Source of the DNA: Catajapyx aquilonaris
Lineage: Eukaryota
Length of the DNA: 64,000 nucleotides
NCBI GenBank assembly: GCA_000934665.2
Contig: JYFJ02001343.1
Span: forward strand, 1-64,000
Direction of reading: 5' to 3'
The notes beneath the pieces were generated by a model, which had not been told where the DNA came from, did not search any database, and was given only the letters and a program-made list of their open reading frames with translations. The position numbers and the translations under genes were made by a program. Shown one piece after another: positions 2,267 to 31,818 of the stretch. How positions within the stretch are numbered: position 1 is the stretch's first letter; each line of letters begins with the position of its first letter.

Positions 2267-2422
2267 CCCTGTAATGCCCCTTGGGTCATGTCTGGCACAC
2301 CATTTAGTGCAATTTGGCACACTTACAGAAAATATAAAAATTGCAAAAGTTGCAAAAATTGCACTAAATGGTGTGCCAGATATGACCCAGTGGGAATTAC
2401 TTAGATTAGTGGCATTACAGGG
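2267..2422. mobile_element. piggyBac-type MITE
   Basis: TTAA on both sides; TIR CCCTGTAATGCC...GGCATTACAGGG; internal inverted repeats. Confidence 0.8.
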
Positions 2423-2685
2423 TTAAAAGGGTTAGCCTTGTTGTTGTCATTGTGGCCCCAGTACTTATATCCCGAATGCTGTTTTTTTGTTATGAACTGA
2501 GGCGGCCGTATATTTTCTTTTATTTAAAAGTATAATATAGTGAATATTTCATATAGTTATTAGTTATTAGTGCTTTTTCTGCCAGTTTGATTCATGATTT
2601 TGTGTTTAAATGGTAACATAATTGACATTTTCCACTGAAATTTTGCAGTAAATTGATGGATAATTTCCCAAAACAGTGAGAATAC

Positions 2686-5023
2686 CTGGTAGTATATTTT
2701 TAACACAGCCTCTTCCTCACTACTGATGACCTCGGTGAAGGTGTTGACTGCGACAATTTCTGTATACTGGCACGGTTGAGGGCAGGTGCAATTTGCCTTG
2801 GATAGAGAGTTCAGTTTCATTAATCGGTCGTTGGCCCTCTGAGCTCTCTTGTGTTGTCCTGTCCCACGGCAGGCTGCGAAGCTCTCATTCATTTCTGTAG
2901 AAATAATCATATAATAATATGGTCGCACATTTTCATCCCATTTACAGTGGGTTTACGTCTTCGGGAACGGAAAGGGAAAATAACAATAAATAATTGGTGG
3001 GAGATATTTTGGGAGCAATTGACATAAGCTGATAAGGCAGTCAAGTATAATGTTACTTTTTAGTAACATACTTTGGATAAATGGCAGGCGGCATTCCACT
3101 AGTGAAGTCGTATACTTGGAGTAACACTCCAGTAAGCAGTGTGACCTGGAATATTCAGGATCTCTTCTGCACGGTTGGTATATTCTGTTTATAGACTTGT
3201 ACTAAAAACAACATTTAAGTATATTTATGCTGGGAAATATGACGAATATAATACGTTTTGTCTTAATTGTATTTACCACTGTAGCAGTGATTTCTGTGAA
3301 TTTTGCAACTCCTTTAGGAAGTGAGAGGCCCTTGACTGCAATATCCAAGGTTGGAATGTCCTTGGTGTTGTGGATGAGGTATATCCATCCCTCATTTTCC
3401 CTCTGAAGTTCTTTAACAGAGTCTTGCATTGTTATTGTAAAACTCTGGTGAATCCCGCTCACTTTCATTTGATGGCTTGCTGCAAGGTGTGGACAAGATT
3501 ATTTACTTGCAACATTCCTCTTTACATGTTCATAGGATAAAAATTGACTGACTCATGAAGTAGGTGAAACAAACTCCACGAGCTGTGAAGACAGACTCCC
3601 ATTTACCCACTTCGTTGCACATGTCGTTCCTGGCTCCGATCCGGCACTGTTATAAGATATTTTCAACATTACATAGTCAACTTAGAATCACTTCAATGGT
3701 ATAATGATTATTAATTATGTGATAATTTTTACATACCACTTCATGTATATGCTAAATTGGCATATGAAGTGGGAAGTATGTAAAACTTACTTCCTTGATT
3801 ATCTTGGATGCCCTGCTTTGAACCCTGCTCCACAGTTCTTCGACTTCCATTCCCTCGAAATCTGGCCGTTCCAACAATTGTTTTTCTTGTTCCTAAAGTT
3901 CAAATCCTAAAGTTCCTGAAGTTTTTAAAAGACGTGTACAGGGTGTTTCTCTGTCCGAAAAGGAAGGACGGGGAAAAGCTGGTGGTTTATTAACCTCTGG
4001 CGATGAAAACGGAGTTGGCGGCGTGCAAAAAGTCACAGGATAACCCAAACCACATGCCCAGTCTGTAATTCTAGTGCGTGCCATGGGTGACTAATCCATC
4101 AATACTTCTCTGCCCTTTCTTTTCGGATTGTCAACGTGGACATAGAAACACCACCCTGCATTGTACACATGAACTACAATAACTTTTGATTTCTTGTCCT
4201 GTAACTTGGCATTTTTGTCATGCAACAAGAACAAGTACCGGGTAATGAATGGATTATTATTAGCTAACATTTCTGCCTCTTGCATGATCTAAGAATAAAT
4301 TGATATGATCTTGACCACTACAATTTATCTATAAGTCTGGCCACACAGGGCATAATGGAAGCTTAAGCTCACTCTTATTTAAAAGACATGCGCAGTCTGC
4401 ACCATGTAAAACTATGCCCCCCCCCCCCCTTCAAATATTGCTGCTCTTCCTAGTTAGGACATGTCGTGTAATAAAGTTTTTTTCCCCTATCAGTACGCTA
4501 GTCAGCAATCGTTACTTCCGATGGGAGATGAAATGAATCCAAGTAACGAAACTAATGATGCGCCTACCCCCATTTCGTTCCACTGATTTCTTGCCATTTC
4601 GAGGGCTACATTATTTGGCCACTCCGCTTGGCATACGGTGACAACAGGAGCTGGAAGGCTTTCGTTGAATATTATTCCCGTCTCTATCCTGACGGGGAAG
4701 TTCGACCAGTGCCATATCCTGCGGGAAATCTGAAATCCAGTGGCGCAACAGGCCGCCAGGAGCAAGACCATCCAGCATATCCTTCGCAAGGGGTTGGCTT
4801 GGGAGTCGAAGACTGTTCGAAGTCCTGGGATGCGTAGCTGGCGGGCTATGAAGGTGGCCGTGTGTCCAGGCCTGTCCTTTCCTAAGGCTCTGGAGCCCAA
4901 GGCTCTTCCGTCGATGGGACGCAGGGGAATCTCCACCTGCTCTTGTTCCTCCCCTACGTCATCGTCAGGTGTCCACGCTACCCGTCCTGCAGGTTGCTTG
5001 TGCTTATTCCACTTCTTAACCAT
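2686..5023 (-). CDS. DEG/ENaC (pickpocket/ASIC-like) channel, copy A; six exons seen, terminal TM2 exon not found in window
   Basis: Exon 1 has RRICWMVLLL (TM1) and LPAPVVTVC. Later exons give EQEKQLLERPDF, GVCFTY, YSRSHCLLECY...CRLPF and CTCPQPC; GT-AG sites keep frame and are collinear with copy B. Confidence 0.85.
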
Positions 5024-5586
5024 TGCGATCTACTTCATGAACCCGGCTTATTGTTGAGGTGCCGTTTCCAAGGAAGAGCATGGCTAAACATAATAGCAAA
5101 GAAGCATGCAGAAACTATGAAATCTGCACATGCCTTCATCCTGTTTGGCAGGCAACGTGGTAACAGATTTGCAGTGACCTAACTGTCAGGATGAATTCCC
5201 ACTCTATTTTTTTATTAGAAAATGAGACACTTAATATGCCAGGAGAGAATATTACTGTAAATAAGTAATACCTACTGAAACACCTACTTTTTCTTGCAAT
5301 TGTAACAAAGGCGCTTTTAAAAAAATCAAGTAAGGTAAAGACGTAGTGTGCATAAATTATATTTTTTGGCGTACCCTGCAGTCTGCATCACATTTTGGGG
5401 CATGTCTATACATTCGGTGTAACATTTGTAAGAGGTTTCATTCATTTGCTAAATATCAGAGTACATCGGTGTCACACTAATCTGGCTTCAAATCTGTACT
5501 TTTTGTGTGGCTTCGATTTACGTCTCCTGCTGCAAATAAAAACACAAGTACAGTGTTTGTATATGTAACTTCCAGAGTACGAGTAC

Positions 5587-7646
5587 TTACTTCAGTGCCA
5601 GGAACATGCGTAGTTTGAATTTTATAAGAACTTCTGCTATTTCAAAGAATGTGAGCAACGACGCTCCGAGAATCAGTGATAAAATAGCTCCAATGTGCGC
5701 CAGAAGGCGGAACATAGAGTAGTGGAACACTTCTTCAATATATTCGTAATTGAGGTCCTGAAATAACGTACGTGTTACTGTACCAACTTCGAGTGCATAA
5801 TTTAAAATATAAAATACCTTATAATAGAGTTTTAAAACGGCCAGGTTTTCATCTTCCGAGTCTGTCCGAGGTTCTGTAAAAGAGTTGACTGCAACTACAC
5901 TTATATACTCGCACGGGGGGAGGCATGAGCAATTTGCTTTGTCCATGTAGTTGAGCTTTAATAGCCGGTCCAGTGCTCTCTGTGCTCTTTCGTGTTGAGC
6001 CATTCCTCGACACGATGGCATGTGATCAGTGACTTCTGTTTAGACAATGTGGAGAAAAAATGTCATTTACACGACGTTCCACTTGTGATTGGATTGAACA
6101 AATTGTTAATTGCGAATTGTGACATACTTTTGACAGATGGCAGCCGGCATTCAACTAGCGATACCATATATCTAGAGAAGCACTCATGCAGGCACTGTGA
6201 CTTTGAATAACCTGGGTTTTCTTCACAGGGTTGAGATGGCCGATTTGGTGCCTTGTGCTAGAATTAAACATATGGGACGACATTTTCAAGCGATATTTAT
6301 TTTCCGCTAATACACTTTTATTAGACTAGCCGAAAGCCTACAAGAAGAGGTGAAACAGTACCTTGGTAACATGAAGTTCTACCGACTTAGTCCATCCTCT
6401 TCGTAATACAAGGCCGTGAGTTTCAATATCCACAGCCGGAGTATCCTTGCGCCCATGAATCAAATATTTCCAACCATGGACACCTTCTCTCCGTAGTTCT
6501 TCGACACTAGCTTGCATCGTTAATGTTATACTTTGGTGCATCCCACTCACTTTCAGAACCTCAGCAGCTAATGTTTCAAGCCACAAATCGTGTCTGAGTG
6601 TGTTGAATACGACTTTACTGATGATTGTGTTATTCTAGGGATATTTTGCCATGCGGGGTAAAATAATTCTCGGCTTTTATTATTGTTAACATATACAATA
6701 CTGCCGTTCATTGCAATCATTCAAACCTTGAAAAGTCCGACGTTATACCGCATGTCAAAGTGCCCAATTTTTCTTGCACATAAATACTCACCTAAGTGGT
6801 AGGTGAAGCAGACCCCCAGCGCTGTCGCCACAGGATCCCACTTGCCCACCTCATGACACAAAGCGTTCTTTGCTCCTATAGTACACTGCATGAAAGTGTA
6901 AAAGATTTCCCAGAAGAATTCAAGACCCGATGCAATAAATACCTACCGATTTGATCATATCCATCACTCTGCTTTCTACTCTTTGCCACAGTTCTTCAAC
7001 CACCATTCCTTCAAAATCGGGTCGCTCCAGAAGCTGCTTCTCTTGTTCCTACAGCGAATTTAGTACGAATTACTGCCTAGCACAATTATTATTTTTTGCT
7101 TCTGTTTTGATGTATGACCTGGAGCTCGTTCCAGGCGTTCCTGGCCATATCTAAGGCCACCCCTGTCTTCCACTCTGCGGCGCACATGGTGAAGACTGGC
7201 GCGGGCAGGCTCTCGTTGAACTCTATCCCCATTTCGACCCGGACAGGCAGGGACGTGTAGTAATCTATCCTCTCGGCCATCTGTATCGCGGTGACCACGC
7301 AGCCCGCGGCCAGCAAGAGTGACCAGCATATTCGGCGGGCCGGGTGAGCCTGCGAGTCGAAGATGGTTCTGATTCCGGCCACGCCGATCTTTCCGGCTAG
7401 CTTGGAGGCCGAGTGGGACTTGTCTTTTGACTTGGACTTGGATCCCAGGCTCCTGCCATGCACTAGCCGAAGGGGTATCACTGTCTGGGACGTGTCCTCG
7501 GTCTGGTCGTCGGCGGGGGTCCATGCCACGTGCTCCGACTGCCGTGTCTTCTTCTTCGCCCATACGCTGGGTTTCCTCTCCTTTTTGCTCATCGCTCCCT
7601 CCAATAATTTGTTTTTGCCCCGTTTCCACGGTGATGGTGCTTCCAA
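5587..7646 (-). CDS. DEG/ENaC (pickpocket/ASIC-like) channel, copy B; complete, seven exons
   Basis: TM1 RRICWSLLL, PAPVFTMC, Cys-rich thumb (CLHEC...CRLP...CSCLPPC), TM2 with the GAS filter (ILGASLLTFFE). Exons splice in frame at canonical sites. Confidence 0.9.
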
Positions 7647-9848
7647 GGGTTTTCATCCATTTATTGTGATTTGATTTTATTTTTTGCATTTTTTTTCTCG
7701 ATTCATATAAAAACTCAAATCAGGTTTTTCCCACCTTGTTGTGAATAATTGTCTGAATAAATATACCAAACAATTGAGATCAAAAGAAACCCAGAATTTG
7801 AAGCTGTATCTGAAATTGGGCATCGGGTTGTTAGTTGAGATGTGTGTACAGTACTTGGCTTTATAAAGTCCATCCTCCCTCCTCTTCGTTCATTTTCTAC
7901 ATATAGAAGACCAGATCCATCGTGGATCCATCAAGCTTAAACTCTCGAGTGCATCAACATGAACAACTGGCTTAGGCCGCGCCTAAGATTTTTACAAGGA
8001 TATTTAGGTTCTTCCCTTATTTGCCCTTGCTAGGTTCATTGTTGCCAACAATGAATAACAAGGATATACTCGTACGTGGATCTGCAATGGTGCAATCTGC
8101 CCAATAATGCACAATCTGTACGCACTGAAGCACCAGACGCACAACACAAATGTACTCTTTTGAGGGTTGTCTTCACATTTGTGTCAGCATGAACGGACAC
8201 ACGCGTAGTTGTCGTTATTGTTGAACTTGTAGTTTGTCATGCTAGCAGCTAGGGACAAAATGCTCAGCCGTCTTACCGAGCTACTCTGCATCTATGGAGT
8301 ACTTTGTAATGAGTCTAGTTAGGGTACTGGTACAGTAAATAAACTGATATTATTTTATTTCAAGAAAAACGTTCATACATCTTATTGCAGGTAGTATGTT
8401 TATTCCTGCTCACAGTCCATTATGGTTTCCATCTGAGTCACATAATTTGTTATTGTAACATTTGACACCAACTTAAGTACCTCACACTCTCGCTCACACT
8501 TCATCACAGGAGTTGGGTGAGGCCACGTATTATTTATTCATGCGCATATACACAATATAATTATTATGAATCTGGGATTTTAAAAATTCACTAGCCCATT
8601 ACCCTGCATATTTATATTATATTTTTGAATAGTCAATATTTTCTCTTTGAAAAGTGGTGTATTACGAGAACTACAGTGTTAAATATTTAACCAAAACATC
8701 TTATGCTAGAGCACCTTTACGCACATAAAACAAGTAAATGAGTATAGGTATAGGCCTACTCATTTTGGGAGTTCCAAATGTGTGTCAACAAGACGGCATT
8801 TGACGTGAATCGCCCAGACCAACCACAGTGCATGCATTAATTTAATTGATACCATCATGTCAGTCATCTGCTTTCAGTGTTGACATAATTATTATCTGTG
8901 CACCGATGCCGAAACCATGTGAAAATGTCACAGCTCACGTATTTCTTCTGTTGCTGTTGTAACTACTATGTTTTCATACATTTATAAGGATATTTACCGG
9001 TAGATGATATTGAAGCATACTGGTCAATAGTGATAAAAGGTGCAATTTCATTTCCAAAAAATAAATAAATGAAAATGCCCTTTAAAAATCATTTTTACAT
9101 AAGAATAGGAAAATATGAAATAATTTTCTCATTACATATATTTGTTGTGTGCCCCGTATTCCTCAAGTTTCAATCTTATTTCTTTGCATGTTATCTGGTT
9201 TTCAGATGTTATATTAAGTCCAGAAATCAGCTGGGACATGAAATTGCAGGATTTTTTACTATTTACCCATACTCAACAATATTACCTATCTTCTCAGTGG
9301 AATAACAAAATGTACGTGCTACCACAGGACCTGGATATATTGTCATCACGCCCAATAAAACCTTTCCGCTTATCAATATACGTATTACACAATGTTGACC
9401 CAGAGAGATATATGAGTATACTCCAGGACTGTAGTTGGTCGATCGGCTTTGTTTGTGTAGGCTGCCCTCGAGACAAGAGACACAAAAACAATACTTACTA
9501 CATCAAATAAAGACACGACAAAATAATGTTTTTTCAATTGAATACAAGACAGTGTAAAGGTCAAGGGTGCTGTGAGCACAAGTTCGTGCATTTCGTAGAT
9601 GTCAATAGCAACTCAACGGTGCATAAAAAAGCTATACCCTGTTTTACTCTGAAAGATTCGGGCTCGTCATCTTTCTTATCAAAATAGTAATCAAAGAGTT
9701 TACTGTTGCCGAGGATTTACTCCCGCGTTCCTTGACATACATAAATAACATTAATACTGCCATTATCACCAAAGTTGTTTGAGATATATTTTAAAAACTT
9801 CTTCCAAAATAACTCTAATGCTAAACCTTTGTAATATTATTGTTAACT

Positions 9849-12344
9849 TTATACAGGTTGAGAGACTGGGCTGGGTGAAGAACCTAGAATCTCTAGAATG
9901 CGCCCAACTTGTTCACTCAATTTCTCCATACGGTCATCTATTAATTCTACCTTATTTTTAATGACTAGGACATCTTTTTGAACCTCTCCGTTTAGTTTTC
10001 TCATGTTGTCTTCCAGACTGTTTACGTCAGCTGTCAATTCCTTAAATTGCTCTGAAAACTTCTCATATTCCTCTTCCTCTTCAGTGTCTTTCAGAAATTG
10101 GAGTATGTCGTCCAAGAGATGCTCCGGGATACGGAAGAAGGTGGAGGACACTGCTCCAGTTACCAAGTTGAGAGTGACGCCTTCTTCTGGCATAGAAGGC
10201 AACACAAGTAGGTACTCCGGGATCTTGCGGAATAACTTAAAGACGGCACGGGTGACAATGTTGTCACACAAGCACGAGCAGCACCTGAAACACAGTTGAC
10301 ATTGTAGATTATTTAGTTGACCTTTCCTGAATAAGAAACTTACTTTGGAAGTTTCCTACTCATCATATCGACACTGGATGACGTCCAGAGAATCGACTCA
10401 ACGTAGCAAACAAGGTTGACGCAAGGCAGCAGGCCATGCAATTCAGCCTCGTCGGCAATCTTTTGGATGTCGCTGACTGCCAGGGCGTCCAGGAGGTTCA
10501 TCAGCACCAACATGATGAGGAATATGAACAAGATGACCAGTATGAATGTGGAGGGCAAGAGTGCTCCGTAAGGGAACTCTTGCAGGTCCATCTCCCCCAT
10601 CATCATCAGGGTTGTCTTGAGTCCAGCCATGGGAAAGAAGTTGTACAGCTTGTTGCAGTCGCCCACAGCTTTGTCATTACAGAAGTTGAAAGTGAGGTAG
10701 AAGCTGACCACAAATCCACACAGGATGAAGACGAAGGGGAAGAGGAATTTCAGATAGTTCTTTGACACTGTGGTGAACATGAATATGTACTGGGTAAATG
10801 ATGGGAATCGGCCAATCAGGAAAGCCAATTCAATCCATGTAAAGAGGGGCCAGAGGGTGGCACAGCTTCTCTTCACACTCAGAGGAACGTTATCCATGAA
10901 GACTGCAACGCTAGCCAATAGGATTATGCAAGCCTCCATGTAGTTCTCGACGTGAGTAAAGTAATGGTATCCGCTGCTTATAATTTGAAATCCTTCCCGG
11001 CTTATTAGCATGTATAAAAACACTTTGACGATCAGATGGAGAGTATCGTCCGGATCATGGTCGTCCACGTCTGTGTTAGTTGTATTGCTGTCGTTCTTAT
11101 CATGCCCAGGAACAAAGGATATTGCATACATCGACGAGCAAATGACGTAAGCGAAGTAAATTGCAAAATTTAAGCAAAATAGGGGTAGAATTCTCTTCCA
11201 CTTGAGGCAGATAAACGTGTGCAGTACAGGATGAGTGAGATTGTTCCTGTGCTTAGGCGACTTAATAAAAAATGACAGTCTCTTCCATTCGGGTTTATCG
11301 GGACTGGGATTAAGGATGTCATATTTGATTATAGCCGTGGGTTCCTCATTCTCCATCTTGTCTTCTAGATAAATACAAGAATTCAGGTAAGCTTCCAGAG
11401 TCTTTTTTGGGATGTCATCGATTGGGCGCTGCCCGCTTTGATCCTTGGTCCAAAGATCTGCCCCACAACTGATCAGCTCTACCGTGGTTTTGATTGATGC
11501 TTTTGACACGGCGTGATGCAACGGGGTTTTACCAGCAGTGTCTTTTGAGTTGACATCTGCACCACGCCAGAGCAACGCGACTACGTAATCAGGCAGTCTT
11601 CGAGTGGCAGCGTAGTGTATGCTGACTTTGCCCTGGCTACACCTGTGGTTTATATCCGCACCTCGCTCTAGTAGCAGTTCGAAAATCTCCATTTCCTTAT
11701 GTTCGATGGAATTCTGAAGGAGGACGAAGGCATTCAGAGTTATGTGTGACAGAGTAATGGTTTGGTGGTTACTCACCTGAAGAGCTGACCGACCTTCCCC
11801 GTCAAAGCCGCAATCTGGATGGAATCCCATATCAAGAATGAGTCGGACACATTCTAAATATCCTTCAGCCACTGATATCATTAATATTTTCCCCGCGTAC
11901 TCATTTTCTATCTTGGAAATATGATTTAGTAGAACCTGAAGGATCTCATTATAACCCCAATAGGCAGCGTGTTCTGCTGCAGTCCATTCCTTATCTTTGT
12001 CTTTGACCATGATGTCGGTCTCGGGAAATGCAAGCAATTTGTTGACATCATCTATGTTGTTATTTACAGTCGCTTCAATCAGAGGTTCTTCATCGTTGTC
12101 CTTCTTGACGGAAAGGTCATCTTCGCAGCATATCTGAGTTTCCAGCTGAAAATATTGTCGTTACATAAATTACTCGTAATTATTCATTCATTTGTAGATA
12201 TAAGAATAAGAAATATACTATTTAATAACTGTAGAAATTGTAGCACTGATCAGTCAGAGCAGGCTTCTGGTACAATTTAGTGCAGTAAGCTATATTCTGC
12301 TGGAATTCTGGAACAATATGTCAATGACGTACCGTACTGTTCAT
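9849..12344 (-). CDS. TRPA channel, painless-like, copy 1
   Basis: Ankyrin repeats, HPVLHTFICLKW pre-S1, six TM segments, pore MMMGEMD, S6/TRP-like MNLLDALAVSDIQKIADEAEL and a C-terminal coiled-coil exon (9849-10285). The first 12-nt exon (12333-12344, MNST) is tentative. Confidence 0.9.
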
Positions 12345-14041
12345 TCTGAAGGCCAATGTCAAGGTGTTAAGTTATTCTACTTGCCTACATGAACCATGTC
12401 GTACATGACGAGGCCCGTGACACTTGAAATATGGACGCTAATATGGATTTATAGGTAATCAATGTCAAAGTGGTGTCTCCTAAGGCAACGGGCGCATTCG
12501 TAATTATGTCAGACAAAGGTTTCCTTGCCTAGAAATGCGCAATGTTAAAGGCTATGACGTGGGTGGTTTCCTACACAGGTTGTCACAGGACGTGCGTGGG
12601 CTGTGTGCTAGCAGTACTGGTCCCGAATAAAGTTTAAGTCATGCATAATAATCAATGTAGTTTGTCACAGATGTTTCTGAGGGTCATTTCAAGGAACTTA
12701 CATGCGAATTATTGGGCTAAGGAATGATCGTTTAAATATTATTGAATTAAATTCTACAGTACTCTGTCCATTATAATTTTAACTCCTTATGTGGAATTAT
12801 GACCCAATGAGGGCACTAAATAAAAATTGCTCTCAATAGATTTTAAATTAAGATTTTCATTCTCCACTTGTAAAACTTCTTTGGCTGCAGTGGTTATTAT
12901 GGAGTAGTTTTGTTCTTATAATTATCGTTTTGGAACATTTAGCAGGTTAATTTTAATTATTTTGGGCACTACAGACCGTTATTATTTGCTTGACCACAAA
13001 CAGTAAACTCCACACACCCCTCCACTTATCAGTGTGATGTGTAATCAGCACTAATCAATATTGTTAGTTCTTGTGGGCAGTTCAATACAGACGTGTATTC
13101 AAAACTAATAAATACTCTAATGCCTGCCACGTGGAAGGTAGTTTCTTTCTGCAAGTGTCTGCATATGAACAACGAATTTCAAGAAAATATGTATTAAAGT
13201 CACATTCAGTCACCCGAAGATCCATTCTAATAATTATATTGGTCATACGAGACGGCTAGGTGTACACACTAGTCGTCGCTGGGATTTCTGGAATTTCTGG
13301 GATTATGCCGGTATGTATTGAATGAATGAATGAATGAAATGTATTAAAGTAATTATTATGTACACCAAAAATATACTTTTAAGACTGACAGCTAATTTTT
13401 TTAAGCCTGTGGTTTCGAAAATAAACAAATTTTTTGTTATTGTTATTTATTCGATACCATGTGTTTTTGAACAGATCAAATTCATTTGATATACTCTAAG
13501 CTATAATAATGTTTTAAATTCGGGATGAAAGCAAGAGAGTGCAAAAACTTGAACAACATATCCTTACTTTGGATAAGAGCGAGTCGACCGCCTCCTTTGA
13601 GTCCATGAGGGAGCCTGGAAGAGACAAGCCATTAGACCAGCCGTCCTCTTCTAGTTGCGGCATTATATGCCTATTGCAGGATGACCCACACGAATCGACT
13701 TTTTAAATGAAGAAAGACATGGCGTGCATTGTGCGTACAATACTCGATCGTACGTCTGAGTGGGCTACCGGGCCGAGGTCAGAGCGGCACTGTTGCGCTG
13801 TAGGCTTGTCCCCATCGATCATAACGTTGTGTCGAGCCTCTTCCAGGAAATACTATTAGTTGCTGACACCAGGACAGTGCGAATAAGGGATTGGTGGGTT
13901 TCCTTTCCAAGTGGCAAATGGTAGTTCTGTAATCACTTATTACATATCTACAGAAATCTATATAGATGTGATTAGTCTTGCGATCAAGTTATTTTTCGAT
14001 AGTATGAGCTATATATTGCATTTTAATGCAGAGTGACTAAT

Positions 14042-14341
14042 CTATCTATCTATCTATCATACCCCATTGAAGCCGTTCTGGCTTTTTAGGGGGGAGATTT
14101 GTTTTTTTTTTTGGCTGGAACTCTTGTAAACTTTATTTCGCTTTTTGGGACGGGATAGGGATGGAAGGAAGCGGCTGTGGCCTATTAACTAGGAAACAAC
14201 TCCGGTATTCACCTGGAGGAACCGTGGGAAACCACAGAAAACCACGGTCAGAGTTGCCGGCACCGGGATTCGAACCTCGAACCCAGGACCTCCCGATTAG
14301 CAGGCGGACTCCATATCCACTACCCCAACCTGCTTCGGTAA
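14042..14341 (-). mobile_element. tRNA-derived SINE
   Basis: Box B GGTTCGAATCC, body GGTTTTCTGTGGTTTCCC...AGGCCACAGCCGCTTCCTTCC, (TAGA)n tail and a 13-bp TSD CAGAGTGACTAAT (14029-14041 and 14342-14354). Confidence 0.85.
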
Positions 14342-14567
14342 CAGAGTGACTAATACTCGTACGTGCTAAATATATTAGAAACTGTTTCGCAGAAAGGTTT
14401 GAAACCAACTGTACAAGTCCAAAAACTATCTTCTCCATGAGGGCGGCTGGTGACGTCCATCTGTCGTATAAAATAATGATTGTGCTTAAGAACATGACGC
14501 TATAATTTGGATACAGTCGCCATCTCACTATCAGCATCAGTTTCATTGAAACCCAGCACACCATCAG

Positions 14568-14694
14568 GCACGCTGGAAATGGGTCGGGATCCCGAAGTTT
14601 CAAGTGTGCTGAGGTCCCATAATTTTATACCGTATAAAATTATGGGACCTCAGCACACTTGAAACTTCGGGATCCCGACCCATTTCCAGCGTGC
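14568..14694. repeat. Perfect palindrome, 63-bp arms, 1-nt spacer
   Basis: GCACGCTGG...TTTTATAC / C / GTATAAAA...CCAGCGTGC is an exact reverse complement. Confidence 0.95.
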
Positions 14695-15643: not shown

Positions 15644-18600
15644 TTACTTCTTGTTTGTTCTAGTTTTGTTCGTTTCACGTTGATCAATCTCTTTCTTCGC
15701 ACTCGTGGCCTCTAAGTTCAGAGCTTTTTTCAAGTCCTTTTTCATGTCTGACACTGACTGTTGGATCTCTTTTATTTCTTCCAGGATTTTCTTGTACTCC
15801 ACCATCTCTTGGGCTGCCACAGCCTCACTTCTCCTCTTATCCACGAGAATATTCAAAGCCCTAACCACGTTTTCAGGTACTGGAAAAAAATGAGACCCAT
15901 TCACTGATCCCGTGCGTAAGTTAACAGCAATTGGTCGGTCAGGAACCGTCAGAAGTTCGACGACAAAATTAAGAGCTCTGCCAAAACATCCTACCAGTGG
16001 TATTCTCGAAAACATCCAGGCTACTTTTTTGAATCTGTAAAAAAAGTGCAGAGAGATTACAGGTAATAAAATAGAGGGTGTCGTTACTCTATAGCGTAAC
16101 TTTGGTTATTACTTTGGTCTGTACTGGATATATTGTACTTATGAGCTCTATACCAGCAAAACTACCTACCTTGAGAGCAAAGGTCCGTATTTGTTCCTTG
16201 TCTTGGGGCAGAAAAAGGCTTCAACGTCACAAACCATGTGCAGGAGGGGGTTGATGGCATAAATTTCAGCCTCGTCTGCAATCTGCTGAGCGTCACTCAC
16301 TGCCAGAGCGTTGAGCAAGTTCATAAGCACCAACATTATCAGAAAAATAAAAAGGAACACTAGGGTGAAAGTGTAAGGCGTCATATTTCCATACGGAAAG
16401 TCCACCAAATCCATTTCTCCCATCATCATGACCGTCGTTTTGAGCACTGATATCGGAAAGGAGCGGTAGAGCTCAGTGCAGTTGTCCGTGACGCACAAGT
16501 TGAAGGTGAGGTAAAACGACAGCACGAATCCGGCAAGGATGGCGGTGAATGGAAACAGAAACCTGACGTAGTTGTATGCAACTTTGCTGAACATGGCAAT
16601 ATACCTGGTGAAGATGGGAAACCTCCCGATCATCAATCCAAACTGAAGCCAAGCCAACAGGGGCCACAAAATGGCGCAACCTCTTCTGCTTATGATCCAC
16701 ACGTCATCAAGGTAGAGTACTGCAATCGCCATAGAATAAGAAGCTACTTCTATGTAGTTCTCAAAGCTGATCAAGTATCGCCAACTAGTACTCAGAAACT
16801 GTGTCACCTCCCCGAGGCACAAAACCAGCAAGAGGACTTTCACAGCGAATTCCCAGACTGGATGTGACTGGCCCAAAGTGTCCGTAGTTGGAGCAGCAGT
16901 GCTTAGAGTATCTTGAGCTGTCAGTTTGAGGGTGCTGGATTTCAGCGAGAGCACACACAACGTGGATGCAGCAAGATAAGCGGTGAACGTCACAAATTTT
17001 AACAAGAATATTGGTAACACCCTCTTCCACCTTAATGTGATGAAGGAGTATAATAGGGGGTGCTTCAGGAGTCTCTTGTGCCTGTGGGAAAACGCAAAGT
17101 ATTCTAGCCTCTCGTATTCAGGTTTGTTATCGCGAGACTTCTGTATCACGTCGTACTTGATCATCACGTGGGGCTCTTCCAGAAATCCTTTGCTCTCTTC
17201 ATCACTAAGTATGCATTCATCAAAGTAAGCCTCCAAGGTACTGCAAGGTAGGCGGTAAATAGGTTTGGTAAAGGTCTTGTCCTCCTGCCACATATCTGCT
17301 CCATTTCGAAGGAGGGTGACAGCAGTGTCAGAAAATGCGTACAATGCTGCATAGTGCAATGGAGAGCGGCCCAAGTGATCGGAAGAGGTGACCACAGCTC
17401 CTTTGTCCAACAAGAGGGTCACGAAGGACGGATTGTCCTTCGAGGATGCGTAATGCAGTGGCATTTTTCCATCTCTGCTGCGGTGGTCCACGCTGGCTCC
17501 CCTGGACAACAGCTCTTCCACCACATCCAGATGACCAGCCATTATGCCCTTTTGAAGTGCAGAGCAGCCATCAGTGTCGTCCGATGTATCAACCTGAGTA
17601 AAAAAATTAATTACAGTAAATCCAAATAAAGTGGCTGATCCTAATTATTCATTGTCGGTAACAATTTTCTAAACCACTTGTTCGGGGTAGCTTACTGTAC
17701 CTGAGCACCTGCTTCTAGTAATGTTCTCACGCATTGCAGGTGGCCTTGCAGCACAGCAATCAGAAGAGCGCTGTTCAAAGTATCAGGCGTGACCCTCTTA
17801 TTTGAAATCCCCAGGAGAATGTTGAGGACACCAACGTCCCCATTGAATGCGGCCCAATGAACTGCATTCCATCCCCGCTTGTCCCTGAAGTCTGGAGCGA
17901 TTCCAGAGTCCAGGAGTTGCGTTACGGTTTCCGCGTCTCCAATTTTGGCGGCCTCCAGAAGAAATGCTCGCTTGGTATCCCATGGGCTCTGTAATGCACC
18001 GATTTTTTAAAAATTTGGTTAAATCATTGTCATGTTGCCACAAATGCAATTCGAAGTAGTTTTCCCATTTTGCCTCTTGGGTTGGCCATTAGTTGAATGA
18101 GGGGAAATCAATAGATCACTTGATTCTTTACTTCATTCATTGTTAATCACGATATGGAGTGCTTTAGAAAATCAATAGCGACAGCATAACCTTGCTACTG
18201 TTTTCATGTTAACATGGCAAAATGTAAATTGTTCGCATTTGATTAGGTAACATAAACATATTGCAGAGTATTTAAAATTTATTTTTTATGATCGTAGTTT
18301 GGACATCGAACTTAACTAATCCATTTGGTAACTACTTTTGTCTTCTTCTAATATTCTACGTTCATTACCATTGTAGTCTACGTATATGCCCAGTACGGTC
18401 TCCAGAACAGGGCCCCCAAGAAATATCAGCATGAGTGTACTTACAACTTTCTTAATTATGCCAAAGAATTGTGCTTTTGGCATTGTAATCTACCTAATGA
18501 CATCAGATTTAGTAGCAAAAAATGATCAATAAGACGGGGTAACGTTAAAAGAACGCATGTTCACCCCACGGGCCATAAAAATCTGGGGATCACTAGTATC

Positions 18601-18727
18601 GACCATTCTCAGTAAAGGTGAAAAAGAGAAGTTGACAATAACATACCTGATTGCGGTTGATTAAAGAATCCGTGCAAGTGATGACTTCGTCCATGATGGC
18701 TCCAGGTGGGGTGATGGGGAGGTCCAT
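15644..18727 (-). CDS. TRPA channel, painless-like, copy 2 (four exons)
   Basis: Exon 1 MDLPITPPG...NQ (18727-18647), ankyrin exon (~17988-17701), TM exon with HPLLYSFITLRW, MMMGEMD and MNLLNALAVSDAQ, then a coiled-coil exon; all join in frame. Confidence 0.9.
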
Positions 18728-20178
18728 ATCGCCTTAGTTGTTCGAATTCAAAGGCGCACAATTCTAGCTGTAAGAAGCAGCAGCGACCTCCATTTCTGGT
18801 GTGCTTTCGGGCTATGGCAACAACGATCGATGGTCACTCGGAGTACCCTGTACTGTATAAAGTACGGGCCAAATGCCTTATGTCCACCCCGCCTACCAAT
18901 TTCTGCAGCCCTCGATACGTAGAACCATAGACCTTAGAGCTCTATAAGGTCTATGCGTATAGAACTTCACAGACAATAATAAATTGCAGACTACATGATG
19001 GCTTCCGAGGTCGATAGTGGCTGCTGGAGATTACCAGGTACTTTTCGCTGTTAAAAATGCCCATTGCGAGAGCAATAACTCACGCGACGCATCAATGTGT
19101 TCACTGTAATCGTTTTATTAGAGGGTGGGACAGTAATAGTCTATGGATGCTTATATAGCCTATTAATAAAACTCATATGAGCCGATGCTCGTAAAACAAG
19201 TAATTATATTTTTGTACGAAGTCGTAGAATCACACATGCATCGATATTAAATATCATACTATTAGGTTCATTTATGTTACGCTCAATAACAATATTTTTC
19301 AGTAACTTTGTCAGTCAGAAACTTACAGCCTAAAGTGCGTGTAGTTCAGAACATACAGTCAGTAGACAATGTTATATTACTAGATATTATAATTATTATA
19401 ACACTGTTTATCCTTTGAAACATTTTGATATAAATATTCTAAAACAAACAACAGGCAAACATGGAGAATTGACTCCATGCATCCGTAGGTTTCAGCATTA
19501 TAATATTTATCATTCAATACATGACATTGTTACCACATTTTATTGTCCAGCACTAACTAATGTTTATTTGAAATTAAAAATATATTATTCTGAAGTGTTG
19601 TAATGGCCAAACTGGACGTCAGGTTTTACTAATAATGTAGAGATTGCCTTAATGTGCATAATTTCTCATCATTTGAATTTATCAAATCCTTATTTCAGGT
19701 TCCTGTTATAAGCAGCCAAGAGAGAGAAAATGAATTTATCGTTAGCGTAATTTTTGTTTTATTAATACACGAATTAGTCTACACGTGCAATCATGCAAAT
19801 AGTCAATAAGCTCTGCTAATAACAATGTAATAATGTGTAACTGTATCCTTTGCCAATCAAACACTTTCAACCATTTTGGGCGCGGAGAAGGGAGAAAAAT
19901 TAAATAATTATGCGACACTTTACTGATGGTTTAAATACAGGATACAACAGAATACTTTTTATTTTTTATCAGATTCAAATGACGTCGACTTTATTACCAT
20001 TGTAATAATTGTAATTTAGCAATGCCAACAGTTGTCATACAGTTGGGACCTTTAAAAATAAATACGCCACATCGATTTTTCATAAACATAAGAGTGATAA
20101 AGTAAGAAACAAAATAATAAATGTGGCTCAGTTGCTGGCTGGCAAACGTTACGGCCAGTATGCGAAGTATTGTACGTA

Positions 20179-20584
20179 CAGTCCTGTTCATAAAGAATGG
20201 TACGACTCTATGGACGACGTGTTTATTCTGACTATCCAGCATTATTCCCAACCTGATTTCGTCGCGACACTATGGACAACTTGTCCTAGATCTCTGGCGA
20301 CCCATATGACCCCCTCCCTACTTTTTCCGAAATTTTTTATTACCAAAATGTTCAACCTGGTACAATGCTTACATACAGTAGATTTCAGATGAATTTCCCC
20401 CCTTAAATTTTCTTACTTTGCCTTTTTCTTCTTCTCTTTTCTTCTATTTTCTTCTTGATTTTAATTGCCTTTACCCAGCCTTCCTCATGACCCCTATAAG
20501 AACATGCTGGTGACCCAAGGGTTGGGAACAGAATAAACATTATTTTTGTCCATAGAGTCGTACCATTCTTTATGAGAGGTACTG
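20179..20584. mobile_element. Tc1/mariner-type MITE
   Basis: TIRs CAGTCCTGTTCATAAAGAATGGTACGACTCTATGGAC / GTCCATAGAGTCGTACCATTCTTTATGAGAGGTACTG; TA on the left side. Confidence 0.7.
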
Positions 20585-20915
20585 GTACTATATAGTATAT
20601 ACCATTGGGAGATGGCAAAGCATACGATATATTCGAATTACTGCGGAAGCCATGTCAAGAGAGAGGCGATTAAAAATTTATACAGGCTATGATGCTTTGT
20701 AAATATTAATAACCACTAATCACTAAATCTACTAAGCTTATCGTCCTTGAGATTTAGAAGACACTATATCGAAATACACTTGAGGTAAAGTAGCACCTCT
20801 ACAGCCCTGTAGCGACGCATGTGTTGTGTAAGTTAAATAATGAAGTAGGCCTATACATCCAACATGGACCTCAAAATTAATGTCGAAGAAAATCACTCAA
20901 ATATGAAAACAATAC

Positions 20916-23900
20916 TTAAACTCGACTCTCTATAGAAAAGTAGTCTTTAATGATTTGAAGAACCTCCTCTACCTGCTTACCGCGAGCTTCCACTTTGTCA
21001 TTAACAGCTCTTATCTCATTCCGGAGATCATCTCCCAGTGCGTCTAGTTTTTTAACCTCCTGTTTAATAAAAGTAATGTCCTTGGCCATTTGACCTTCTT
21101 CTTCAGTCTGCTTCTTTCTTTCTATCAAGTCTTTTATACCAGTCACAACATCTTCCGGAAGAGTGAGACCGACATCTTGAACAGTACCGGTCCTCAGGCT
21201 GACCGTTATTGTGCAGTCATGTATGCGTGGTAAAACCAGAAGGAACTCGAAGAGATGTCTTCTAAGTACTTGGCAGCATTCGGGAAGATCGCCGCACCTA
21301 AACACGATGGGATACTAATTATTTCTCTGTTACTTTCACGAGGTAAAGACTAAAATGCAGAACCGTCAGAGTAATATTTACTTACTCAAAATTGAGTTTT
21401 GCACTCTATTTAATAGTTATTGGCACGTGCTTGTTTTTATTGCTATGATTATTTTCAATTTATTATGAACTCCACAAGGGATAATCGCATTTTTGAAACT
21501 TTTAAAGTCGCATATCTCACAATCATTCCGTTGTGATGTGCATTGAAACTTACCAACTACAGCATCTAGCAAGAATAGCCATCAGGTTTGGCTTGTAGAA
21601 CGTTCCTTCCACGTGACATATGAGGTTGACCAAAGGGACGAGTCCATACAGTTCCGCTTCGTCGGCGATCTTCTGGGTATCACTCACAGCCAGTGCGTCC
21701 AAAAGGTTCATCAGCACCAACATGATGAGGAACACGAAGATGAGAATCAGGATCAGGGTGAAAGGCAGGAGTTCTCCGTAAGGCAAGTCTCCCAGGTCCA
21801 GTTCTCCCATCATCATTACCACTGTCTTGACGGCAGCCATGGGGAAGTGTTGATAGGTATCTCCACAGGTGTCAGGCAAGCAAAAGTTGAAGGCTAGGTA
21901 GAAGCTGAGTACAAATCCAGCAATTATGAAGGAAAAAGGGAAGAGGAATCTGAGGTAATTCTTGGAGACAGTCGTGAACATGGCAATGTACTTGGTAAAC
22001 GTCGGGAATCTCCCGATAAGGAAGGCTAGTTCCACCCAGGTGAGAAGAGGCCACAAAATGACGCAGCCACGTTCGATGTACAACGGAATCTTTTCGAAAA
22101 ACACTACCACTCCAGCCGTGACTATAATGGCGATCTCCATGTAGTTCTCTACTGTTAGGAAGTAATAGAGACGGGCAGTGGACAACTGATACAACTCCCT
22201 GCACATCAGCAGGACAAGAAATGCCATTACCACATGATGCAGCACCTGGTTGGTCTCGGGTGATTCCAGCAGGGATCGCATGTCTACGGGCCTGGAGGCA
22301 TTGACCGGCGGCATGAAGGAAAGGGCATAAACAGATGATGACACCACAAAGGAGAAGTAGATCAGGAAATTGCATAAGAAAAAGGGGAAGCAGCGCTTCC
22401 ACTTCAGGTAGACAAATGAAGCAAGGACCGGATGTTTCAGAAGGATTCGCTGCCTCTCGGACCACATGAAGTATTTCAGACGTCTAAACTCTGCTTTACC
22501 TTGTGGAGATGGGTCTAGGATTTTAAAATTGACTCTTGCCATTGGCTCCTGGTTCTCGCTGGTGGCAGGCGGTAGAGTAACAAAAGTGTCGAGATAGGCC
22601 TGCAAAGTCCTCCGCCTGATTTGATCGATGGGCTTGACCCCTCGTGGGTTGGGTCGCCACAGGTCAGCGCCATGCTCCAGCATATGGATGGTCTGTTTGA
22701 TAGAACCGTACGTGGCCGCCGTATGCAGGACAGTGTCGCCGTCCTTGTTTGTAGAATGGATGTCTGCTTTCCTGTCCAGGAGGAGGTCGAGGCACGCGGT
22801 GTCGTCGTTGACGGCAGTGAAGAATATGGCCTCCTCACCAAACACAGTCTTTTGGTGTATGTCTGCACCTGCATCCAGGAGAATCTTGACGGCATCAACC
22901 TGAAAGGAATCAAAATAGTAAATCCCATTTAATGCTGAAGGTGCAGTAGGCCTACTTTAATACGTACATTCATTTATAACACCTACACTACAGTATTGTG
23001 AAGTGACATGCAGCTGTGTTTGTGACCCAGATTACATCTTATTAAATGGGATAATGATTTTTGTGCCTGCTGCACTAACTTGTAAATGTTTAGACTGACC
23101 TTTTCTGACAGTATGGAATTGTGCAATGCTGTAATCTTGTAGTCATCGGTGGCGTTGACGTCAAACCCTGATTTCAGCAACAACTGGAGGCATTGATAAT
23201 TGCCTATTTTAATCGCACACTCCAAAGACTTCTTCTGGAACAGTAAGGGAATTTGGCATGGGCTGTGAAAATCTAAAAGTATTCGAATGGCAGCAAGATT
23301 GTTGTTTGTGCAAGCAATATCCAGCGGTGACAAGAGGCACATGTCGGAATGTTCGGTCAGGTCCATTCTGGCGCCGGATTTTAATAAGGCTTGAAGGTCG
23401 TCAAGGTTGTTCTTCTTCACAGCTCTAATTAACTGGCAATGAGCTTTGATGGCGTCTGGATCTGCCTTGACTTCCTTCTGGAAAGCAACATTTTATCGTT
23501 TAAAATAAATAAAAAAACACGGCGCAGTATAAGTATTTCATTATGAATCATTTGATTTATCAAATAGCTATTGTCAACATCATCGTGAAATTAAAATGTT
23601 CCCAGCAATTTCTCGACTCGTACGACAGGATCGATATATTTCTTCTGGCCCTGGGTCATGTGTGTAGGGTAACTGCCCTGATAAGAAATCTGACTGAATA
23701 TGTAGGCTATTGATTTCCAATGTAATTATGACCTACTGACCTAGGTGACATATCGTGACTCATTCGCCGCACCCAACACAGGCATATGTTGAGCGAAACT
23801 GGCCCCACTGGACATCCTTCGGTCCCAAGATATGATTCCGAGAGTGCACTTCACAATATTAAAATATCTTGTGACATCGTTACGCTTATTATACGCTTCT

Positions 23901-24278
23901 GGAATGCTAATGCATCTCAACACATGTACTTTTAAAGTGAGCAAGTACATATTTTGAAATAGGGCAAATTCATTATTGCTTAATTAATTTCCATGCGTGA
24001 CACTTTCATGTACGTAATCAAATATTCTTAGGTAGATGTTAGTAATATGTAGGCTATCTTATGTTATAAATCTATGGCATGATATTGCTCAAACTAAACT
24101 GCCCTATGAACCTTAACAATTATAACCAAATGCCCTCCAACATTCCATATTGTAGCCATATGGTTCTCACCTTGCATGTCTCGGTTCCATCAATGTAAGG
24201 CAGGCTGTCTGTGTGTTCGTCATCAATCATGGCGTAAGGGAAATCCCCACTGTGTGCGCTTCTGGGTGTAGTAGCCAT
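20916..24278 (-). CDS. TRPA channel, painless-like, copy 3 (four exons)
   Basis: Exon 1 MATTPRS...TCK (24278-24171), ankyrin exon (23477-23100), TM exon with HPVLASFVYLKW, MMMGELD and MNLLDALAVSDTQ, then a coiled-coil exon. Confidence 0.9.
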
Positions 24279-25205
24279 CACTAGTAGCAACAAAAATCCT
24301 GTTGGTGACAAGTGACAAGTTCCTTCTTGTGCGTCGTCGGAGAGAAACACACTGAATGAGTCCAGCCGCAGATGTTACTCTGGATAAGAAGTAGTATAGT
24401 ACTATAGGGATGGATCGATGGCAGTAGGCGACTAAAAAGCAGCAGGACCACTCTTCACTCCGCACTGCTGCATGTTGGCTGGCTGGCTGGGCTGGCTTGG
24501 CTGTGTATCGGACCAAGGGGCGCCGGTTCAAGGAAGTGTCGGGACAGACGCCTCCACTTCCATAACCAAAGTCGTAAATACAGCCAGGCAATTTGCTACC
24601 TTTTGGCTACACTCCAGAGACAGATAAAGTTGTAGAAGGATTCGAAGGAAGAAAAAAAGCCTCTTCTATTGTGTAACAAAATTAGTGGCACGTTACTGAC
24701 AACTTTAGTTAGCTTTAATCGAATATGGATTTGATTCTACATAATCATAATCATCACCATCACGACATTTCCCTATAATGGGGTAGTCAGCGATGACGGG
24801 AGCCACAAGCTAACCCAAAATATTAACTAAATTAAAACTTGTAAAAATAAACTCCACATCCCTGCCCATCTCAGACGACAAACACTCAATATTATTCTAC
24901 ATAATTATAAAATAAGTAAATAATTATTGGACAATGATTCTTTGAGTTAATAGAGACAGACTGCACTAGACATTCAGGTTTAGCATTTTTTTAAATTGAC
25001 GATATTGGTGAAAATACAACATTTCCAATGTTTGCAGTTTATTGCAACTCATAAAATATTATTTACATATTATCCAGCTAATAACATGACAGTTATCTTG
25101 CAATTAGCACAGCCGTAACAAAGCGGAGATTATTGCAGACGCTGACATGTTGATAATTATGCACCTTTTCGTTCAATTAATACTCTACTAGCCTTCTGAA
25201 CCTCT

Positions 25206-27908
25206 TTATATATCGCTTTCGACAGGACTTGACGGATGATCCATCAAGGCAAGAATGCGTTCAAGTTGTTTTTGCACTTCCTCCAATCGATTGTGCACAC
25301 TATTTCTGAATTCGTCCACTTTACTGCCGTTGTTCAGTCCAATCAACTCAAGCCGGACAATATCTTTCTGGAGACGGTTCAATTGAGTTTCCTCCATTTC
25401 CTTGTCTTGAGCCTCCAGGAAGCGAGCCAAGATATCTAGAACGGTGCTTGGGACACTAGACACCATGGTTTGCTGATCGGTAAAAAGCTCTCCTGTTCGC
25501 ATGTTCAACGTAATTTGGCATCCAGGCAACGACGGCAGGATTAAATTATGATGAGTCACGGCATTGAAGGCTTCTTGAAGATAACGCAGCGGAAAGCAGC
25601 AACAACATGGAGTCAAACATCTGTTTCCAAGATAGGAAAAAAATTATTGTTATTAGTTTTTATGAATCACACTGTGGATTTAGTCTAAAGAAGAGCGCCT
25701 GGCAATTAGACTTCCTGCAAAACAGAAGAGGCTCATGGGTAGACCTTCAGTGTTAGGATAAAGTTGGGATGGATATGAACATGCAAGGTCCGGTACAGTA
25801 CACTGTACAGTACAGTATTATAAAACAGCTAAATATTCTTTAAGCCTGATGGCGCACTGTATTTACAGAACAATTCCTGTTAAAAGTGACTAGAAAAACT
25901 AGATTTCACATTAGGTTTTCCTGCATCATGCCTACCAATAATGTCGCGGAGGCAGGGTGATCATTAGTTATGAGACCAGTGCAATAAAAAGCTGACCACG
26001 GCAGCATCCGATCGATTTACTGCATGTGACTATCGTATAGTGGGCCTTGGGCAGAGAGCCAGTAAAATCTGCTGAGGGGTGAAAGGACAAAGAAATAAAA
26101 AAAGTGAATCGCGTTGTGGTATACCAACCTGTTGATGCAGCTGGAAAGTCTGGGCTTCCAAAAAAGATCCTCGACGTAACAGACCAGTCGGACCAGAGGC
26201 ATGATTCCGTACAACTCGGCTTCGTCGGCTATTTTCTGGGTATCACTGACGGCCAGAGCGTCCAGGAGGTTCATTAACACTAACATTATGAAGAACATAA
26301 AGATCAAAACTAGGATGAGTGTCGAGGTGAGAAGGTGTCCAAAGGGCAGATCGGCCAGGTCCATCTCGCCCAGCATCATCAACACGGTTTTGGAAGCTGC
26401 CATGGGAAAGCTGCGATAAAGGTCGCTGCTGCAAGTGTGCTCCGTACATTGCTGCAGGGTCAGATAAAATGCCAGGATGAATCCGGCTATGATGAACGAG
26501 AAGGGAACGAGCACTTTCACGTAGTTTTTGGCCACGGTGGTAAACATGGCGATGTACTTGGTGAAGGCGGGGAAACGTCCTATCAGGAAGGCGAGATCTA
26601 CCCATGTCAACAGAGGCCACAAGATGACGCAACTTTTTTTGGTGCTCTCCGGTATCCCGTCCAGGAATAGGACAGCTCCGGCCAGCCACACAATCAACAT
26701 TTCCACATAGTTCTCAATGTTCAGAAAGTAGAAGATACCCTTGTGCAGCAGCTGGTACAGCTCCCGGATTAGCATCAGGACGAAGAAGACGATGCACATG
26801 ATCCACAACAAACGAAGGTGTTCTGGATCGTGTTCGCCAATGAACGCGATTGCAAACACGGAAGAGACCATCACGAAACAAACGTAAAATATGAAGTTGA
26901 GCATAAAGAAAGGCAGGGCTCGTTTCCACTTGAGAAGCACAAAAGTAGTGATCACCGGATGCTTCAGGATAGCTCGATGTCGATTTGACCTCAACAAGTA
27001 CATCAATCTTTCCCACTCCGGCTTGTTATTGAACGGCTGGAACGATATGGTGATCTGAGCGTCTTCGTTTTCTCCAGTAGGCTGCTTGACCACAAATGTG
27101 TCCAAATATTCACGCAGGGTCTTGGCAGGCATGAGGTCCACTGGGCTTATCCCCCGTCGATCCCGATGCCACAGGTCGGCACCACTGCGTAAAAGTTCGA
27201 TAGTTGTACGGATTGATGAGTGTGTGGCTGCGTAATGAAGTGGGGTACGTCCTTCTCTATCCTCAACCTTATGACCAATATGACATGGTTTAATGACCAC
27301 TAATTTTGTAAATAAATTGTACGCTTACCTGGACATTGCCCCCATAATCCATAACAAGTCGCACCAAATTGGGTTCCTGGTTGTATGCCGCAAAGTGCAT
27401 GGGCGACCTTCCCCCTACGTCAACAGCTCGAGGGTCTACTCCACGTGTCAGCAGCACCCTGGCCACCTCAAAGTGAGCCATAAACAGGGCCTTGTGAAGT
27501 GCATTACGCCCACTGGCATCCACGCGATCCAGGTCTGCACCCGAGTCTAACAGGAATACCACGCAATCAACATGTCCCATCTCAGCAGCCGTACTCAGCA
27601 GGTTTTCATACTCCGGAGACATGAGGTCCTTCTGGTTCAGGAGTTGCTGAAGGACCTCCAGATGACCCTGGAAGGCCGCCCAGTGAATCGGGGTCCACTC
27701 AGACACGTGTCCGGCAGCCTCTTGCTGTACCTGCAAGCAACAAGTGAGTGTCATTACATTATTCTAACGATGGGATGTGATCAATTCAACTTACAGATGT
27801 GGTTGGCACGTCTGATTGGAGTGTTGGCTTGTAAAACCCATTCTCGTTGCCTTTTGGCTGCTCGTCCATGGTCGACTTCAGGTTGACTTCCGCAGAATGG
27901 CCTTGCAT
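25206..27908 (-). CDS. TRPA channel, painless-like, copy 4 (four exons)
   Basis: Exon 1 MQGHSAEV...PTTS, ankyrin exon (27730-27329), TM exon with HPVITTFVLLKW, MMLGEMD and MNLLDALAVSDTQ, then a coiled-coil exon. Confidence 0.9.

Positions 27909-31774: not shown

Positions 31775-31818
<44 letters not shown>

Follow-up and report, generated by a model that had tools for sequence, protein, structure and literature searches.

Why do six sensory ion-channel genes belonging to two unrelated families lie in a row on one strand of DNA? This question is raised by a 64,000-nucleotide stretch of the Catajapyx aquilonaris genome (assembly GCA_000934665.2, contig JYFJ02001343.1, positions 1 to 64,000 of the forward strand; the whole of it is referred to below as the window). 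An initial annotation, made from the sequence alone, had noticed there two DEG/ENaC genes and four painless-like TRPA genes. We consider it likely, with a probability of roughly 0.7, that these are two ancient tandem arrays, independent of each other and belonging to sensory channel families that often expand, which became neighbors by chance. According to this explanation one array, of two DEG/ENaC genes, and another, of four painless-like TRPA genes, would each have grown by tandem duplication. Such duplication would have preserved gene orientation within each array, the copies would since have been kept under purifying selection, and the adjacency of the two arrays is taken as neutral.

The window has a GC content of 36-49% and is eukaryotic sequence. 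A stop-to-stop list of its open reading frames (ORFs) contains long minus-strand frames at 2.5-28 kb. The Pfam model ASC (PF00858) matched the frames at 4502-5029, 7089-7652 and 5587-6039, and ankyrin models with or without Ion_trans matched those at 10340-12160, 16166-17644, 21550-22956 and 26017-27324, with further ankyrin frames just upstream of each. Gene models were assembled by scoring, from the sequence, GT-AG junctions that keep the frames open; all splice sites are predicted, and the first exons are provisional, those of TRP1-3 being the least certain and that of TRP1 above all. The resulting gene structures, in which TM1 and TM2 denote transmembrane (TM) segments and aa amino acids, are as follows.

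2560..5023, minus strand: ENaC-1, DEG/ENaC, 422 aa; TM1 present, Pfam ASC, exon phases mirroring those of ENaC-2; exons 5023-4568, 3892-3791, 3646-3553, 3479-3277, 3201-3072 and 2894-2686, and a non-homologous tail exon 2634-2560

5587..7592, minus strand: ENaC-2, DEG/ENaC, 7 exons, 464 aa; TM1, TM2 and GAS belt, Pfam ASC; exons 7592-7119, 7048-6947, 6885-6792, 6567-6362, 6257-6128, 6035-5818 and 5757-5587

9849..12344, minus strand: TRP1, painless-like TRPA, 728 aa; Pfam Ank and Ion_trans, PDB TRPA1; exons 12145-11777, 11713-10344 and 10284-9849, and an uncertain 4-codon first exon 12344-12333

15644..18694, minus strand: TRP2, painless-like TRPA, 716 aa; Pfam Ank; exons 18694-18647, 17988-17701, 17593-16170 and 16034-15644

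20916..24278, minus strand: TRP3, painless-like TRPA, 737 aa; Pfam Ank and Ion_trans; exons 24278-24171, 23477-23100, 22899-21554 and 21297-20916

25206..27908, minus strand: TRP4, painless-like TRPA, 689 aa; Pfam Ank; exons 27908-27795, 27730-27329, 27267-26129 and 25620-25206

These models bear out the initial annotation, which had described six channel genes in a row on the minus strand and no stops in their exons: six spliced genes were obtained between 2560 and 27908, and internal stops are absent from all of them. The upper limit given earlier for the cluster, 27908, is the ATG assigned here to TRP4, and the lower one, 2686, is the last base of ENaC-1 exon 6. It was also correct that two unrelated channel families have expanded side by side, a Pfam ASC pair and an Ank/TRP quartet. 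No other protein-coding gene had been recognized between the six, and none of the intergenic ORFs examined in the cluster and its immediate flank reached the curated Pfam cut-off. Scanning the whole window for Rfam families and tRNAs was likewise without result, and a tblastn search with full-length TRPA-like database proteins matched the four TRP blocks and nothing else in the window. Introns in the six models are mostly 57-260 nt long. Spacers between genes range from 0.56 to 3.3 kb, the ENaC-2 stop lying 564 bp from the ENaC-1 ATG and TRP4 being separated from TRP3 by 0.93 kb; the sole junction between the two arrays is the 2.26 kb separating the TRP1 stop from the ENaC-2 ATG.

The gene structures, the family assignment, the monophyly of the copies and their age are documented by these data and those below. 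The six gene models lie far outside what chance could produce; that the two families are adjacent, on the other hand, is a single event. Since tandem duplication explains the orientation within each array, the common orientation of the two arrays likewise amounts to one 50% event. The TRP paralogues are 35-43% identical. In every paralogue pair, ENaC and TRP, the proportion of synonymous differences (pS) is 0.73-0.83 and saturated, while the proportion of nonsynonymous differences (pN) is 0.28-0.45. Because synonymous sites are saturated while pN stays well below pS, both arrays are ancient and on average under purifying selection.

Domain and structural analysis placed the quartet in the TRPA subfamily. 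Ank, Ank_2, Ank_4 and related Pfam models match all four TRP genes, and alignment of the paralogues, inspected by eye, gave 5-6 ankyrin repeats per protein. Ion_trans was matched by TRP1 (E 7.8e-14) and TRP3 (7.6e-11) and did not reach an E value of 0.01 in TRP2 and TRP4. Six hydrophobic segments are present in each of TRP3 and TRP4, and TRP1 and TRP2 align to them, giving the six-TM organization with a pore loop; about 295-330 residues precede the first segment, S1. A phase-2 intron precedes the last exon at an identical position in all four genes. S6 is followed by a long helix and then by the last exon, which encodes a heptad-patterned tail: a crude heptad scan of that exon found stretches of 28-56 residues with 43-90% hydrophobic residues at the a and d positions, and Pfam matches of the coiled-coil type were only sub-threshold. 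A separate feature of this region is a Cys-rich run (4-6 Cys in about 15 residues), which follows the post-S6 helix at the start of the last exon in TRP1 (10284-10250), TRP3 (21297-21255) and TRP4 (25620-25580) and is absent from TRP2; this run may serve for palmitoylation or as a metal site.

Searches for solved relatives were performed with the TM parts after removal of the ankyrin repeats, and single exons were used for folding and for searches. The first-ranked solved relative of all four TM parts was Drosophila TRPA1 (7ykr), and the PDB E values against TRPA1 were 2e-28 for TRP1, 2.4e-10 for TRP2, 4.1e-18 for TRP3 and 5e-15 for TRP4. With TRP2 all nine matches were TRPA1. TRPV6 and TRPV3 were weaker in E value by about 1e7-fold for TRP3 and by about 40- to 1e11-fold for TRP4, or were absent. 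TRP1 exon 3 was modeled with AlphaFold from an alignment of 50 rows. The model had a mean pLDDT (predicted local distance difference test score) of 87.9 and the expected helices; when it was used as a Foldseek query, ranks 1-13 were all TRPA1, followed by TRPV6, TRPV3 and other TRPV structures. The top matches in both the PDB and the Foldseek searches being TRPA1, these proteins are closer to TRPA1 than to the other solved TRP subfamilies. Presumably, as is usual for the family, the four products form tetrameric non-selective cation channels that act as thermo-, mechano- or chemosensors.

To which TRPA proteins, then, are they related? A homologue search with a 606-aa ORF was dominated by ankyrin-repeat proteins, and a search restricted to the TM part gave 6 matches. 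When the TM part was used in an exhaustive HMMER search of representatives, 1678 relatives had E <= 0.001, and identity was only 37-39% even for the best of them. The names of 30 cluster representatives, which like those of all relatives are automatic annotations, comprised 12 painless or painless-like, 2 pyrexia-like, 2 TRPA1-type and 14 generic or unnamed entries. The nearest relatives are pancrustacean and come from krill, dragonfly, barnacle, porcelain crab and copepods; short relatives of 710-796 aa occur in barnacle, copepod and dragonfly.

Trees were built with FastTree from 153 usable rows and with IQ-TREE from 54 of those, which comprised every named row, what appeared to be the sister clade, and a sampling of the remainder. 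In both trees the four TRP proteins formed one clade with a support of 100 and a stem of 1.5-2.0 changes per site. In the IQ-TREE analysis this clade lay inside a 46-row group (SH-aLRT, the Shimodaira-Hasegawa-like approximate likelihood ratio test, 99) containing every painless-named row. The earlier designation "painless-like TRPA" is supported by this grouping, which rests on automatic labels and on a set of rows without Drosophila Painless, Pyrexia, Wtrw, TRPA5 and TRPA1. Judged from these sequences, it appears to be a fair label and not a claim of plain orthology, the place of the quartet within the 46-row group not being fixed by the tree.

Two other assignments were considered and rejected. 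The four proteins are not TRPA1 orthologues, because TRPA1 (at most 103 bits) is outscored by no fewer than 150 cluster representatives (104-174 bits), among which painless-like ones lead, and because the ankyrin domain is far shorter: 17 ankyrin repeats are resolved in Drosophila TRPA1 7ykr compared with 5-6 repeats in proteins of 689-737 aa here. Structurally, human and Drosophila TRPA1 cryo-electron microscopy models such as 6pqq, 6v9v and 7ykr gave query-normalized TM-scores of 0.51-0.61 to the TRP1 model at about 19% identity in the structural alignment. A pyrexia-type assignment was rejected since the Artemia, Macrosteles and Homalodisca rows named pyrexia-like lie outside the 46-row group; those labels are again automatic, and two other pyrexia-like names lie inside it.

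Ankyrin repeats combined with a six-TM channel of the TRPA type are shared by the four proteins with Drosophila Painless and the pancrustacean painless-like proteins. They differ from the latter in being only 37-39% identical to the nearest of them and in forming a long-stem clade of their own. They differ also from canonical Painless (p103), for which the available portion of PMC3266251 gives eight ankyrin repeats and an N-terminal domain of 468 residues, as opposed to the 5-6 repeats and approximately 295-330 residues before S1 found here. Multiple painless-type copies per genome are a known pattern in crustaceans: the accessible sections of the respective papers list 17 TRPA genes in Procambarus clarkii (PMC13483504) and 13, including five Painless, in Portunus trituberculatus (PMC10795286), and TRPA/Painless expansion is documented in the accessible part of PMC7067487 too. 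A compact four-gene tandem array like the present one, or a linkage to DEG/ENaC genes, is not described in the accessible text of these papers, and the word "tandem" does not occur in the two genome-wide ones, PMC13483504 and PMC10795286.

The assignment of the other two genes to DEG/ENaC was based primarily on Pfam ASC, which matched the N-terminal exons of both (ENaC-1, exon 1, E 1e-9; ENaC-2, E 2e-6; profile positions 4-75 in each case) and the C-terminal exon of ENaC-2 (E 8e-16, profile positions 347-454). An Atlas feature search with ENaC returned ASC clusters at 0.94. ENaC-2 has two hydrophobic segments, TM1 and TM2, and a GAS belt; it thereby shares with the family (ASIC1, ENaC and the Drosophila pickpockets) ASC matches at both ends as well as the TM pair and GAS belt. 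ENaC-1 and ENaC-2 are 55% identical and have all six intron phases in common. The closest solved relative of ENaC-2 is ASIC1 (PDB search, E 1.2e-5), and no protein relatives were found at E <= 0.001 in a word-indexed search with the C-terminal ORF and longer proteins. By sequence both genes are to be regarded as very divergent members of DEG/ENaC. Their products, we assume from what is general in the family, should form trimeric amiloride-family cation channels.

Besides its high divergence, the pair differs from the family in the HG motif before TM1. The corresponding position reads AG in ENaC-2 (about 7380-7400, by alignment to ASIC2) and PG in ENaC-1 (about 4820-4840, by paralogue alignment with ENaC-2), so that the histidine is Ala in one and Pro in the other. 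The consulted portion of PMC10148893 describes HG as highly conserved in DEG/ENaC, with its histidines forming the lower gate. A small DEG/ENaC is known from another arthropod: BRTNaC1, a heat-activated channel of centipede antennae, indicates, according to the part of PMC9974506 available, that the family can serve as thermal receptors alongside TRPs. BRTNaC1 is similarly small (431 residues in the PDB chain versus 464 in ENaC-2). Its match to ENaC-2 is marginal (E 0.011) and confined to the TM2 region, and a specific link between the two was rejected on that ground.

Five of the six genes look complete and one, ENaC-1, does not, because its exon for TM2 and the GAS motif was not found in the window. 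A tblastn search with ENaC-2 showed that the similarity of ENaC-1 stops at 2686, that is, after exon 6. Past this point there is a 51-nt intron-like stretch and then 24 unrelated residues and a stop. No TM2/GAS exon of ENaC-1 was detected by tblastn at E <= 10, and a motif and hydropathy scan of positions 1-2700 on the minus strand revealed neither a GAS motif nor a hydrophobic stretch resembling TM2 that stood in a channel context. The ENaC-1 model accordingly has only one hydrophobic segment, and the combination of two TM segments with GAS seen in ENaC-2 is not found for ENaC-1 inside the window. The expected site of the exon, directly downstream, is occupied by two repetitive elements, the first resembling a miniature inverted-repeat transposable element (MITE) and the second a long terminal repeat (LTR) retroelement.

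2271..2400, strand not assigned: MITE-like inverted repeat situated between the retroelement and the final exon of ENaC-1; its 45-nt arms are 91% complementary

1..1475, minus strand: ORFs of an LTR retrotransposon, gag-like and aspartyl-protease, that read out of the window; matches to Pfam gag-asp_proteas (1e-9) and RVP (8e-5)

With no TM2/GAS exon found and these elements in its place, ENaC-1 either has had its 3' end disrupted by inserted transposons or extends past the edge of the window. The first alternative, in which ENaC-1 is a pseudogene cut by transposon insertion, is a tentative one that we hold somewhat doubtful; it is a side issue that does not exclude chance adjacency of two arrays. 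In its favor are the missing exon, the repeats immediately downstream and the unrelated 24-residue tail. An extension of this explanation, that some of the TRPA copies on long branches, and TRP2 in particular, may be relics that are not expressed, would agree with TRP2 having the longest end branch (about 1.0) and lacking the Cys-rich segment of the other three. However, none of the six models contains stops or frameshifts, and pN is well below pS in every pair, ENaC-1/ENaC-2 included (0.28 versus 0.73). The invariant pore and S6 residues are kept in all four TRP proteins, and the missing exon of ENaC-1 could sit beyond the retroelement, outside the window.

The next alternative is that of the initial annotation, in which all six genes would constitute one co-regulated nociceptive, thermal or chemosensory locus, with shared enhancers or a common chromatin domain, expression in one class of sensory neurons and linkage maintained by selection. 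That idea rested on adjacency and on analogy with Drosophila, and our data neither support nor refute a common regulation of the two arrays. We looked for regulatory sequences that the genes might have in common. Repeats common to the genes were coding only (families D1 and D2, four copies each, spaced by 4.6-5.8 kb), and the repeat search found no non-coding blocks repeated between genes. Exact 7- to 9-mers were then counted in 563-800 bp upstream of the predicted start of each gene, with first-order Markov controls reproducing dinucleotide frequencies. Four 7-mers were present in at least five of the six upstream regions, where the null mean was 2.2 and a count of 4 was reached in 38 of the 200 shuffles; one 8-mer was found in at least four of the six regions compared with 0.9 expected. 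Both are weak tests.

Linkage of the two families elsewhere was looked for as well. None of 11 metagenome contigs carrying TRPA relatives had an ENaC neighbor at E <= 0.1; the contigs were 1.6-9.6 kb long and the relatives 29-41% identical, and since contigs of at most 9.6 kb are short and the relatives distant this null result is weak. A literature search for pickpocket and TRPA linkage did not find such a cluster reported. Taken with the lack of shared non-coding blocks and of upstream words beyond shuffles, and with an agreement in orientation that needs only the one 50% event, these results make a single co-regulated locus unlikely in our view.

Several points nevertheless weigh against chance adjacency of two independent arrays. 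Six co-oriented genes with spacers of 0.56-3.3 kb and no other genes detected between them, which have stayed together until synonymous sites became saturated, also fit a constrained locus: the copies are ancient and yet still adjacent. The Drosophila partnership is likewise real. Painless and PPK1 work in the same nociceptors according to the portion of PMC3293903 available, and the consulted parts of that paper and of PMC10148893 have them acting together in class IV neurons. Finally, the regulatory tests were weak in that they covered 563-800 bp upstream of predicted starts and exact words only.

A stronger form of the same idea, a selected sensory supercluster, appears to us quite improbable. 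By analogy with the fly, the HG-less ENaCs and the short-ankyrin painless-like channels would make up a matched transduction set for one polymodal neuron class under a shared chromatin domain or enhancer. Such an arrangement could conceivably, though with equally little likelihood, represent a genomic hard-wiring of the Painless-Pickpocket partnership of fly nociceptors.

Spliced-leader trans-splicing is used by some crustacean groups, and the common orientation together with the two short spacers (564 bp between ENaC-2 and ENaC-1, 0.93 kb between TRP4 and TRP3) could suggest one or two polycistronic units resolved in this way, but these are the only points in favor, the other spacers are 2.2-3.3 kb long and contain repeats, and a plausible first exon containing an ATG was assigned to every model, which makes such units very improbable.

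If the two arrays are merely neighbors, as we favor, they show cleanly how two families of sensory channels have undergone lineage-specific expansion in one arthropod. Candidates for heterologous expression are also at hand, namely a painless-like clade that is divergent and two DEG/ENaC subunits without HG. Should the genes turn out to be co-expressed, unrelated mechano- and thermosensory channel families would be organized as one genomic unit, for which we know of no prior case, and the locus would help to understand how the channel sets of polymodal nociceptors are put together.

The upstream end of the TRPA array is flanked by a gene of a different kind, which lies head-to-head with TRP4 with about 1.65 kb between the starts.

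29556..35696, plus strand: SUV3-type mitochondrial RNA helicase gene; Pfam Suv3_N, DEXQc_Suv3, Suv3_C_1 and SUV3_C

Two inverted repeats were observed in spacers of the TRPA array. The TRP1-TRP2 spacer contains a perfect palindrome of 127 nt at 14568-14694, with 63-nt arms that are 100% complementary and separated by 1 nt; it could represent either a foldback element or an artefact of assembly. In the TRP2-TRP3 spacer there is a second MITE-like inverted repeat at 20179-20584, with 37-nt arms, 89% complementary and 332 nt apart. Further along the window, a plus-strand gene at 44908-53787 has a C-terminal ALMS motif (E 3.8e-21), an exon rich in Pro/Ser/Thr and a 725-aa exon that matches no Pfam model, and probably encodes a protein of the ALMS1/centrosomal type. 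Overlapping ORFs on both strands at 48454-49585 contain a near-identical peptide block twice, at about 48.5 kb and 49.2 kb, and this block is probably a repeated element in an intron of the ALMS-motif gene.

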